The position numbers were made by a program. This document shows, piece after piece, positions 62,036-64,000 of a stretch of 64,000 nucleotides of DNA (its first letter is position 1; each line of letters begins with the position of its first letter). Source of the DNA: Candidatus Saccharimonadia bacterium (GTDB lineage: Bacteria > Patescibacteriota > Saccharimonadia > UBA4664). The stretch covers positions 37 through 64,036 of the forward strand of contig JBBRTI010000001.1 in the NCBI GenBank assembly GCA_038244585.1, read 5' to 3'.

Positions 62036-64000
62036 CAAAGACTAAAAAGTAAAAAGGCCGCCTGCTAACCATAATTCGGTTTGCAGGCGGCCTTGTTCGT
62101 GCGTCGGGTCAGAGGTACTGGCCTGTTGGGACGTTAACGGTCGGAGGAATCTCTTTGCCGCCCTGTTCCTCTTTCTTCTTATTGGGAACAAGCGTGCGGA
62201 TGTAGACGATACGTTCGCCCTTCTTGCCGGAAATCCGCGCCCAGTCATCGGGGTTGGTGGTGTTGGGCAGGTCCTCGTTCTCTTTGAACTCATCTCGGAC
62301 GGCCTGCTCCAGGTGATCCAGGCTGAGCCCCTTGGGCTTGAGCTTGAGCTCAAGGAAGTCCTTGATGGCCATCTTCTTGGCCCGGTCCACGATGTTTTGG
62401 ATCATAGCACCGGAGCTGAAGTCCTTGAAGTACTGTATATCCTTATCACCGTTCGCATAGGTCACCTCAAGGAAGCGATTTTCCGCGGTTTCGGCATACA
62501 TGTGCTGAACGGTGGTGCGGATGATGGCGGCGACGGTCGCCGCGGGGTCGTTGTTATTTTCCGCTAGGTCAGTCTTTCGCAGCGGCAGGTCGGCAGTGAG
62601 ATACTTGGTGAAGATGTCCTCTGCGCCTTCCGCGTCGGGCCGCTCCACCTTGATTTTGACGTCAAGGCGGCCGGGACGCAGGATGGCCGGGTCAATCATG
62701 TCCTCACGGTTGGAGGCGCCTATGACCAGGACGTTCTTGAGGTCCTCCACGCCGTCCATCTCCGCCAGCAACTGAGGGACGATGGTGGTCTCGACGTCGG
62801 AACTGACGCCCGAACCGCGGGTGCGGAAGAGCGACTCCATCTCGTCGAAGAAGATAACCACGATGTTGCCGGCCGAGGCCTTCTCGCGGGCGCGAGCGAA
62901 GATTAGCCGGATACGGCGCTCGGTCTCACCGACGTACTTATTCAGGAGTTCCGGTCCCTTCACATTGATGAAGAAAGCCGAGGCCGAGGCGGCGTTGCCC
63001 TCGGCCGCCATGCGCCTGCCTAGCCCGGACGCTACCGCCTTGGCGATAAGCGTCTTGCCGCAGCCGGGCGGGCCGTAGAGCAGCACGCCCTTGGGCGGGC
63101 GTAGCTTGTACTCGCTGAAGAGCTCCGGATACAGGTAGGGAAGTTCAACGGCGTCCCGAATGGCTTCGATTTGTGGGGCCAAGCCACCAATATCCGCATA
63201 GTCGATGTCGGGCAGTTCCTCCAACTCGAGGTCGTTGACCTCAGTCTTGGGGATGACCTCCAAGGCTTGCTTGGTACGGCTGTCGATAAGGAGCGAATCA
63301 CCGACTCGTGGCTTGCAGCCGATCAGCAGACCGGCCAGGCTCACCACGGTGTCCTCGTCGGCGTGTCCGGTGACCAGGACGCGCTTGCCGTCGGCCAGCA
63401 CTTCCTTGACTATGACGACTTCGCCCAGTCGCTCGAAATCCAGGACTTCAATAACGTGTAGGGCTTCATTGAGGATGACTTCGCGGCCGGGGATGAGCTC
63501 GGCAGGGTCGACGGACGGGGATACGGCGACACGCAGTTTGCGGCCGCCCGTTTGGATGTCGACGACGTCGTCCTCCCTGAATTCCAGGACGGTGCCAAAG
63601 GCGGAAGGAGGCAGGGCCAGCCGGTCCATTGCCTCCTTGTCCTTGGCGATTTGCTCCCGCGCCTCCTTAAGGGCGGCTACGAGGGCCAAGTTCTTGCCGC
63701 TAGTTGCGCTGTTTTGGCGTTCTATCGTTTCAATGGTTTGACGCAGCTGTATGAGCTCGCGTGCGTTGGCTTCGGGTGATCCTGACATGGTAATCAACCT
63801 CCTGGGTCCGTCAAATCGGGGTAGGGAGTAGGGTAATCGAGGGGAAAATTGTGTCAAAGAACTGGCTGTACTATAACCATCGTCCAGCCGGGTTGCTAGC
63901 TTAAGCGTAATGGGTCATAGTCCAGAGTTATCCCCCGACCTGATGGTGATTGGGGATAAAACGGACCTAAACTGGGTTATCAACAATTGTATCCATTTAT

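Follow-up and report, generated by a model that had tools for sequence, protein, structure and literature searches.

Pupylation and the bacterial proteasome have been regarded as features essentially of Actinobacteria, encoded in a rigid order of genes. Here, we describe a gene encoding the proteasomal ATPase Mpa/ARC (hereafter mpa), located near one end of a 64,000-nucleotide stretch of contig JBBRTI010000001.1 (hereafter the window) that belongs to a Candidatus Saccharimonadia bacterium (assembly GCA_038244585.1). Instead of the actinobacterial order trmI-mpa-dop-pup-prcB-prcA-pafA, the window has mpa alone with its own terminator. No Pup-proteasome component from the Candidate Phyla Radiation (CPR), Saccharibacteria or Patescibacteria was reported in the literature that we searched. 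The point of interest is a lone, well-preserved actinobacterial proteasome motor in a Saccharibacterium, not a dispersed actinobacterial operon.

The order of genes at mpa loci is rigidly conserved (PMC3511204). In Mpa, the N-terminal coiled coil is the arm that receives Pup, and residues 501-505 of the Mycobacterium tuberculosis protein (ANGDK) ride on the H0 helices of the 20S alpha-ring (PMC8755798). Nitrospirae (Leptospirillum) acquired the whole Pup-proteasome locus from Acidimicrobiales with its order preserved (PMC3511204). As in Nitrospirae, horizontal transfer would have carried a component of the system outside Actinobacteria, but a single gene moved here rather than a whole locus. 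The window also resembles proteasome-less ARC systems of the Corynebacterium glutamicum type in having an Mpa-family ATPase without adjacent prcBA. However, in these systems the ATPase is linked to dop-pup-pafA and has lost both the docking motif and the hairpin residues (PMC3511204, PMC8755798), whereas the window mpa is unlinked and keeps both docking elements, which sets it apart from proteasome-less ARC. Specifically, ATPases of proteasome-less actinobacteria are reported without the C-terminal motif (PMC3511204), and that of C. glutamicum has IDGSV, which is not conserved, at the hairpin position (PMC8755798).

The minus-strand open reading frame (ORF) at 62109..63788 (Table 1) encodes a predicted protein that ends in ...VNVPTGQYL. 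Against the NCBIfam equivalog TIGR03689 (pup_AAA, proteasome ATPase), this protein scored 778.9 bits for a cutoff of 504.75 (E=2e-234) and covered positions 2-511 of the 512 of the profile. The next-best family, PAN, was rejected at 249 bits for a cutoff of 500, as were CDC48/VCP (218 bits, NCBIfam cutoff 803) and FtsH (142 bits, NCBIfam cutoff 600). The AAA module is common to the window protein and PAN, Cdc48/VCP-like proteins, Cpa and FtsH, and PAN also has the coiled-coil and OB architecture. Pfam matches were obtained for Prot_ATP_ID_OB_N, Prot_ATP_ID_OB_C and one AAA domain. The best match among solved structures was M. tuberculosis Mpa (7PX9, E=8e-208), with residues 6-540 of the query aligned to Mpa 50-594. 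An AlphaFold model (32 sequences in the input, mean predicted local distance difference test score of 66) displays a helix at residues 5-58, two beta-rich OB domains, an AAA fold, a beta-hairpin at 438-453 and a disordered tail; in this model, the N-terminal helix fits a predicted coiled-coil Pup receptor.

Compared with M. tuberculosis Mpa and the ARC of proteasome-bearing Actinomycetes (TIGR03689; 7PX9, 5KWA), the window protein is about 65% identical over Mpa 50-594, has the same domain order (coiled coil, two OB, AAA, beta-grasp), and carries identical ANGDK, GQYL and Walker A/B motifs. It differs by its pore loop (KYVG instead of KFVG in M. tuberculosis), its short N-terminal extension and its diverged tail linker. 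The aromatic-hydrophobic-glycine pore loop, Walker A/B and the arginine-finger segment ILRPGRLD all fall in family-invariant columns, of which 291 out of 323 (90%) are kept, including those of the sensor regions and the beta-grasp domain. By each sequence criterion applied, the mpa product is a full Mpa/ARC orthologue of the proteasome-bearing subtype. The initial annotation had proposed an Mpa/ARC ATPase with a GQYL tail at 62109-63788 and a complete coiled-coil, OB and AAA architecture, and had suggested placing it among the AAA clades. The TIGR03689 score, the C-terminus and the coordinates bear out the first proposal, the Pfam domains, the match to the M. tuberculosis structure and the AlphaFold model bear out the second, and the NCBIfam scores place the protein with Mpa and not with PAN, Cdc48/VCP or FtsH.

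The expected partners are missing from the window. Queries for Dop, Pup, PrcB, PrcA, PafA, PafB/C and TrmI taken from a canonical relative (L002) returned only noise at E<=10 in tblastn searches of the 64-kb window, and profile hidden Markov models (HMMs) for Pup, Dop, PafA, PrcA and PrcB (40 sequences each) found nothing at E<=10 in its six-frame translation. No ORF ending in GG[QE] was found within the 64 kb either. The same-strand succession of mpa followed by dop, pup, prcB, prcA and pafA is not present here; directly 3' of the mpa stop codon lies a hairpin (62051..62097; -32.4 kcal/mol, z=-5.6), and then tRNA-Val(CAC). For comparison, we examined 97 loci of the closest homologues, each with at least 7 kb downstream of mpa, drawn from GTDB species representatives and JGI metagenome contigs. 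dop, prcB and prcA were all present at 96 of them, and the remaining one has dop 63 nt downstream of mpa, leaving none of the 97 without dop. These results agree with the initial annotation, which had noted that mpa usually precedes dop, pup, prcB and prcA on the same strand in actinobacteria, that adjacent dop-pup-prcBA genes are absent here, and that a terminator and tRNA-Val take their place.

The source genome is, judging from its genes, that of a Saccharibacterium (Saccharimonadia, CPR/Patescibacteria) and not that of an actinobacterium, because the window RecA shares 85-90% identity with RecA sequences labelled Candidatus Saccharimonas, Saccharimonadia or Saccharibacteria, because the window encodes a type IV pilus cluster, and because it is syntenic gene by gene with Saccharimonadales contigs. 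We compared the window with three related lineages (L084/85/86, L087 and L088/89), which share the order GT4-L25-ADK-DinB-PucR x2-Gam-like-tRNA-Val(GAC)-bactofilin-tRNA-Val(CAC). The bactofilin/DUF8173 membrane protein encoded by the gene adjoining mpa has homologues named Saccharimonadales, and its identity to the copies of these lineages is 74%, 72% and 68%, respectively. L084 is about 78% identical to the window at the nucleotide level, and the G+C content (GC) of the related contigs is near 0.55, as in the window. The host lies outside Actinomycetota and outside known recipient phyla such as Nitrospirae. In this respect, the initial annotation, which had reasoned as for an actinobacterium with a dispersed or reduced system and had taken the gene to bear on the phylogenetic placement of the organism, did not hold: RecA and synteny point to a Saccharibacterium, mpa is a foreign insertion in a Saccharibacterial neighbourhood, and it says nothing on the placement of the organism because it reflects horizontal transfer. 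The two alternatives of that annotation, partner genes located elsewhere and an ATPase-only system, are both compatible with these 64 kb.

Alignment with these relatives showed mpa as a single-gene insertion of about 1.9 kb lying between two native sequences. When the window is compared with L084, homology ends exactly at the 3' end of tRNA-Val(CAC) and resumes at 63951..64000. The matching segment of L084 (9661-9709), about 72 nt past its tRNA, is identical to window 64000..63951 (minus strand) at 41 of 49 positions, including the 19-mer GATACAATTGTTGATAACC. This 19-mer has a single copy in the window, where none is expected by chance. Five Saccharibacterial loci also have one copy each, and the remaining 169 loci fetched have none. 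The intergenic element that contains it (L084 9661..9709, L087 9669..9717, L088 6776..6794) also holds the palindrome ACAATTGT. In the relatives, the GATACAATTGTTGATAACC element is located upstream of a hypothetical gene encoding 182-193 aa, of which it may be the operator or promoter; in the window, this gene would fall just past the end.

mpa is absent from all three related lineages. The slot between tRNA-Val(CAC) and the GATACAATTGTTGATAACC element measures about 72 nt and is empty in L084 and L087, while in L088 it contains an unrelated 165-aa gene, with a PIN toxin(-antitoxin) module on the other side of the tRNA. Since both sides of the tRNA vary (empty, 165-aa gene, PIN module or mpa), the site is an insertion hot spot. 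The tRNA-Val(CAC) itself is 100% identical in L084 and L087; three Saccharibacterial lineages share it at 100% identity, with flanking genes only about 70-80% identical. The loci concerned are window 61961..62037 and 59951..60027, L084, L087 and L088. Around the insert, terminal repeats, whether direct or inverted, were sought and yielded only short matches at chance level. The features of a tRNA-associated integrative island were not found: there is no integrase, no att-type direct repeat and no phage gene, and mpa is the only gene of the insert. Upstream of mpa, a consensus scan gave no convincing promoter and an Rfam search gave no RNA element. We consider it very likely that mpa is a real insertion of foreign origin.

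All 119 best homologues of the mpa product share 66-68% identity with it and 71-100% with one another; they come from Nocardioides, Dermatophilaceae, Streptomyces, Frankiales, Jiangella, Mycobacteriales and unnamed Actinomycetota. The mpa product forms a long branch, sister to the main actinobacterial clade, in a neighbour-joining tree (100 bootstraps) for which phage Mpa-like sequences served as root; this clade excludes it in 88 of 100 bootstraps, and both group together against more divergent homologues in 91 of 100. Unlike actinobacterial Mpa/ARC, the window gene resides in a Saccharibacterium and branches outside the sampled clade. The window protein lies at distances of 0.61-0.66 from the intermediate outgroups L162 and L163, versus 0.50-0.52 for the main clade, which suggests some acceleration of its rate. 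No closer relative (>68% identity) was found in a collection of 5.8 billion proteins, in GTDB representatives or in JGI contigs. A scan of genome contigs with the mpa product retrieved only actinobacterial loci at 68% identity or less, a metagenome scan with a lineage-specific degenerate protein pattern found nothing, and one with its N-terminal 230 aa found nothing above 60% identity. One protein of the same length (P0117, also 559 aa) was rejected as a relative since it belongs to a canonical actinobacterial locus.

Furthermore, the composition of mpa is intermediate between those of its neighbours and of its homologues. Its GC is 0.60, compared to a mean of 0.55 for the other 58 genes of the window and 0.64-0.68 for homologous mpa genes. 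Its GC at third codon positions (GC3) is 0.77, the third highest of the 59 genes, compared to 0.64 +/- 0.07 and 0.88-0.98, respectively. The 212-nt region upstream of mpa has a GC of 0.47, and non-coding DNA of the window 0.48. A codon-usage log-likelihood did not discriminate mpa because the window itself prefers GC-ending codons, and GC3 was used instead. From these data we infer that the donor was an actinobacterium and that the transfer to the Saccharibacterium is old and was followed by partial amelioration, since the GC3 of mpa is partly ameliorated. Saccharibacteria are tiny bacteria. The cultured ones live on actinobacterial hosts only, to which they attach by means of type IV pili (PMC11659515), and this offers an obvious route of transfer from an actinobacterium. 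The lone mpa would then document, at the level of a gene, an exchange between Saccharibacteria and the only phylum known to host their cultured members, and it could help to assign a host lineage to an uncultured Saccharibacterium.

Divergence is unevenly distributed along the protein. The coiled coil is 39% identical to that of homologues versus 59% among divergent actinobacterial pairs, and the linker that precedes the tail (aa 536-554) is 31% identical versus 76%, while the terminal TGQYL is unchanged. Assuming a high-GC donor, mpa would have remained under purifying selection since its transfer, because the frame, the motifs and the tail survive despite the many substitutions that GC3 amelioration implies. 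The product is probably functional, as predicted from its sequence. In proteasome-less locus L173 (trmI-mpa-dop-pup-pafA, no prcBA), Mpa ends in ...AEEVSA and has no GQYL. Because both docking elements are kept here and proteasome-less actinobacteria lose both, a 20S-type partner or another selected role of the tail is predicted.

Together, we regard it as moderately likely that mpa is an old actinobacterial acquisition, kept functional as a solitary monocistronic insertion that occupies a variable slot beside tRNA-Val(CAC). According to this proposal, a Saccharibacterium would have acquired mpa horizontally from an actinobacterium, the single gene landing beside tRNA-Val(CAC). Its product would most likely still be a hexameric ATP-driven unfoldase working by the canonical mechanism: three coiled-coil arms, formed by paired N-terminal helices, would stand over a double OB ring, the substrate would be threaded by KYVG pore loops at the expense of ATP, and the flexible tail would be available for docking into the pockets of a proteasome-type alpha-ring. 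There is about an even chance that the protein acts as a stand-alone unfoldase with no Pup or 20S partner. That it acts on host-derived components seems very unlikely. A broader proposal, distinctly unlikely at this stage, is that in an obligate epibiont of Actinobacteria the tail and hairpin of a lone Mpa are selected without a Pup-proteasome of its own, for a Pup- and 20S-independent activity or for engaging host-derived pupylated proteins or the host 20S, the capture of Mpa being a recurring tactic of parasites of Actinobacteria. The lone mpa offers a natural experiment on the role of Mpa without a neighbouring Pup system and on whether GQYL has a role beyond docking to the cell's own 20S.

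Several observations weigh against an old, functionally retained solitary acquisition. The solitary status of mpa was demonstrated for this 64-kb locus only. The conservation of the tail could be inherited from the donor if the transfer was recent, and the amelioration argument presupposes a high-GC donor. The gene is present on one contig only; a closer homologue was found in no other Saccharibacterial genome or metagenome contig. Finally, the independently assembled Logan contig L083, which comes from the same organism and matches 58521..61988 at 99.97% identity, terminates within tRNA-Val(CAC) without crossing the junction between the tRNA and mpa, and neither supports nor contradicts this junction; its break is consistent with branching of the assembly graph at a tRNA shared unchanged by co-occurring relatives.

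Among the alternatives, the first is a complete but dispersed system, in which pup, pafA and/or dop and prcBA reside at other loci and Mpa feeds pupylated proteins to the cell's own 20S. TGQYL and ANGDK are both kept in a protein that is 33% diverged overall and whose linker has diverged freely, and this favors a dispersed system, as does the published loss of both elements in proteasome-less lineages, the L173 Mpa being indeed devoid of GQYL. However, mpa came as a single gene, whereas the rigid order seen at 96 of 97 loci would lead one to expect transfer as a block, neither tblastn nor HMMs revealed a partner gene within 64 kb, and pupylation or proteasomes of Saccharibacteria or other CPR were not reported in the literature searched. 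We consider such a system possible but rather unlikely. Should pup, pafA and prcBA be encoded elsewhere in the genome, this would be the first Pup-proteasome system in the CPR, which would also be notable.

mpa could also be a decaying passenger, recently captured, without a role in its new host and not yet inactivated. Its absence from the three related lineages, its location in an insertion hot spot and the lack of visible partner genes would suit a passenger, but the frame is intact, the ribosome-binding site is strong and the gene has its own terminator. Moreover, the catalytic motifs are all kept along with 90% of the invariant positions, and partial GC3 amelioration implies a long residence during which a neutral gene would be expected to gather disruptions. 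We give little credence to this explanation.

Phages provide another possible vehicle, as IMG/VR phage genomes carry full-length Mpa-like ATPases ending in GQYL and as the insertion lies on the 3' side of a tRNA gene, a setting in which mpa would be cargo of a phage or other mobile element. This appears highly improbable, since the insert of about 1.9 kb consists of mpa alone, devoid of integrase, att-type repeat or phage gene, and since identity to the window protein is only 44-50% for the phage versions, compared to 66-68% for cellular actinobacterial Mpa.

The phage Mpa-like ATPases nevertheless resemble the window gene in being solitary, full-length and GQYL-tailed in entities that exploit other bacteria, and differ from it in lying inside phage genomes. 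One is encoded at 598..2115 of L090 (IMGVR_UViG_3300028800_000005, 112 kb; L091 contains the same gene), where it adjoins genes for a peptidase A4-like protein, a large terminase, an endonuclease VII and tail fibres. Another is encoded at 9989..11584 of L092 (IMGVR_UViG_3300025886_001308), which has a GC of 0.45 and an SbcC-like phage nuclease. No dop, pup, prcBA or pafA was found in the fetched flanks of L090, L091 or L092, and we found no description of phage-borne proteasomal ATPases in the literature searched. Considered with these copies, the lone mpa raises the testable idea that co-option of the proteasome motor may recur among parasites of Actinobacteria. The best match in the phage collection, MT835496.1, was rejected as a phage carrier of mpa because it is a mislabelled fragment of an actinobacterial chromosome. 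Its segment 34476..47766 (L173; 'UNVERIFIED: Bacteriophage sp.', human faeces) has a GC of 0.74 and the order M50-trmI-mpa-dop-pup-pafA without prcBA, and its Mpa matches in two reading frames.

An assembly chimera or bin contamination, in which a piece of actinobacterial DNA would have been fused to a Saccharibacterial contig at the conserved tRNA, could draw on the perfect identity of tRNA-Val(CAC) among relatives, on the end of the Logan contig inside it and on the rank of mpa GC3 in the window, but is extremely improbable given that Saccharibacterial sequence on both sides (the tRNA and the 63951..64000 motif) would require two precise joins 1.9 kb apart, that GC3 is far below that of the homologues while the 5' non-coding GC equals that of the window, that the searches described above yielded no donor-like sequence with more than 68% identity, and that an actinobacterial mpa would precede dop, not a terminator.

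Table 1. Positions of mpa, its predicted signals and domains, the insertion boundaries and the pilus cluster, numbered from the first nucleotide of the window.
Feature	Position	Strand	Remarks
mpa/arc coding sequence, 559 aa plus stop codon	62109..63788	minus	Stop codon 62109..62111, ATG at 63788; ORF translation and profile searches
Whole insertion (terminator, mpa, leader), about 1.9 kb	62038..63950		
tRNA-Val(CAC)	61961..62037	plus	Native, convergent with mpa; left edge of insertion
Intrinsic terminator of mpa	62040..62108	minus	Hairpin 62051..62097, then U-run
mpa 5' leader/promoter region, 162 nt	63789..63950	minus	Part of the insertion, without counterpart in relatives
Shine-Dalgarno sequence AGGAGG	63798..63803	minus	9 nt upstream of mpa ATG; read from sequence
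Possible -10 element TATAGT in mpa leader	~63866..63871	minus	Putative promoter
Native intergenic sequence	63951..64000	minus	Motif GATACAATTGTTGATAACC at 63975..63993; right edge of insertion
N-terminal coiled-coil helix, aa 5-58	63615..63776	minus	AlphaFold helix; aligned to M. tuberculosis Mpa 50-97
Tandem OB domains, aa 64-180	63249..63599	minus	Pfam PF17758 (E=9e-21) and PF16450 (E=1.5e-14)
AAA module, aa 235-382	62643..63086	minus	Pfam
Walker A GPPGCGKT	63051..63074	minus	Family-invariant columns
Pore loop KYVG	62928..62939	minus	Family-invariant columns
Walker B DE (FFDEME)	62841..62846	minus	Family-invariant columns
Beta-grasp hairpin ANGDK, aa 445-449	62442..62456	minus	Identical to M. 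tuberculosis Mpa 501-505
C-terminal GQYL 20S-docking motif	62112..62123	minus	Sequence; preceded by strongly diverged linker aa 536-554
Complete type IV pilus cluster	11093..22051	plus	PilM, PilN, PilO, PilB (591 aa), PilT-like (373 aa), PilC, several N-methyl pilins, prepilin peptidase

Elsewhere in the window, we identified genes for RecX, S6-SSB, EF-P and YchF, as well as for BacA, an O-antigen-ligase-like protein, oxidative pentose-phosphate enzymes and L25. Upstream of the pilus cluster, three large proteins without Pfam matches (7370..11065) have an unusually high second-position GC and may be pilus-associated surface proteins. Two adjacent and overlapping PucR/CdaR-type regulators (Diacid_rec, GGDEF_2, HTH_30; 56713..59089, minus strand) recur at every related Saccharibacterial locus. 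Beside them is encoded a protein of about 195 aa (59181..59762), and its homologues from relatives match Phage_Mu_Gam. A 465-aa ORF without Pfam match (40044..41441, minus strand) that adjoins tRNA-Asp (41511..41586) may be another foreign gene; its GC is 0.47 and its GC3 0.39, compared to a mean GC3 of 0.64 for the window. Nearly coextensive ORFs occupy opposite strands at 22101..23012 (plus) and 22104..23036 (minus), and the one on the plus strand has a first-position GC of 0.80 and no Pfam match. Finally, a 265-aa ORF without Pfam match (52441..53238, plus strand) sits where L084 and L085 have a thiolase gene on the opposite strand, and constitutes a second local break in the otherwise conserved synteny.

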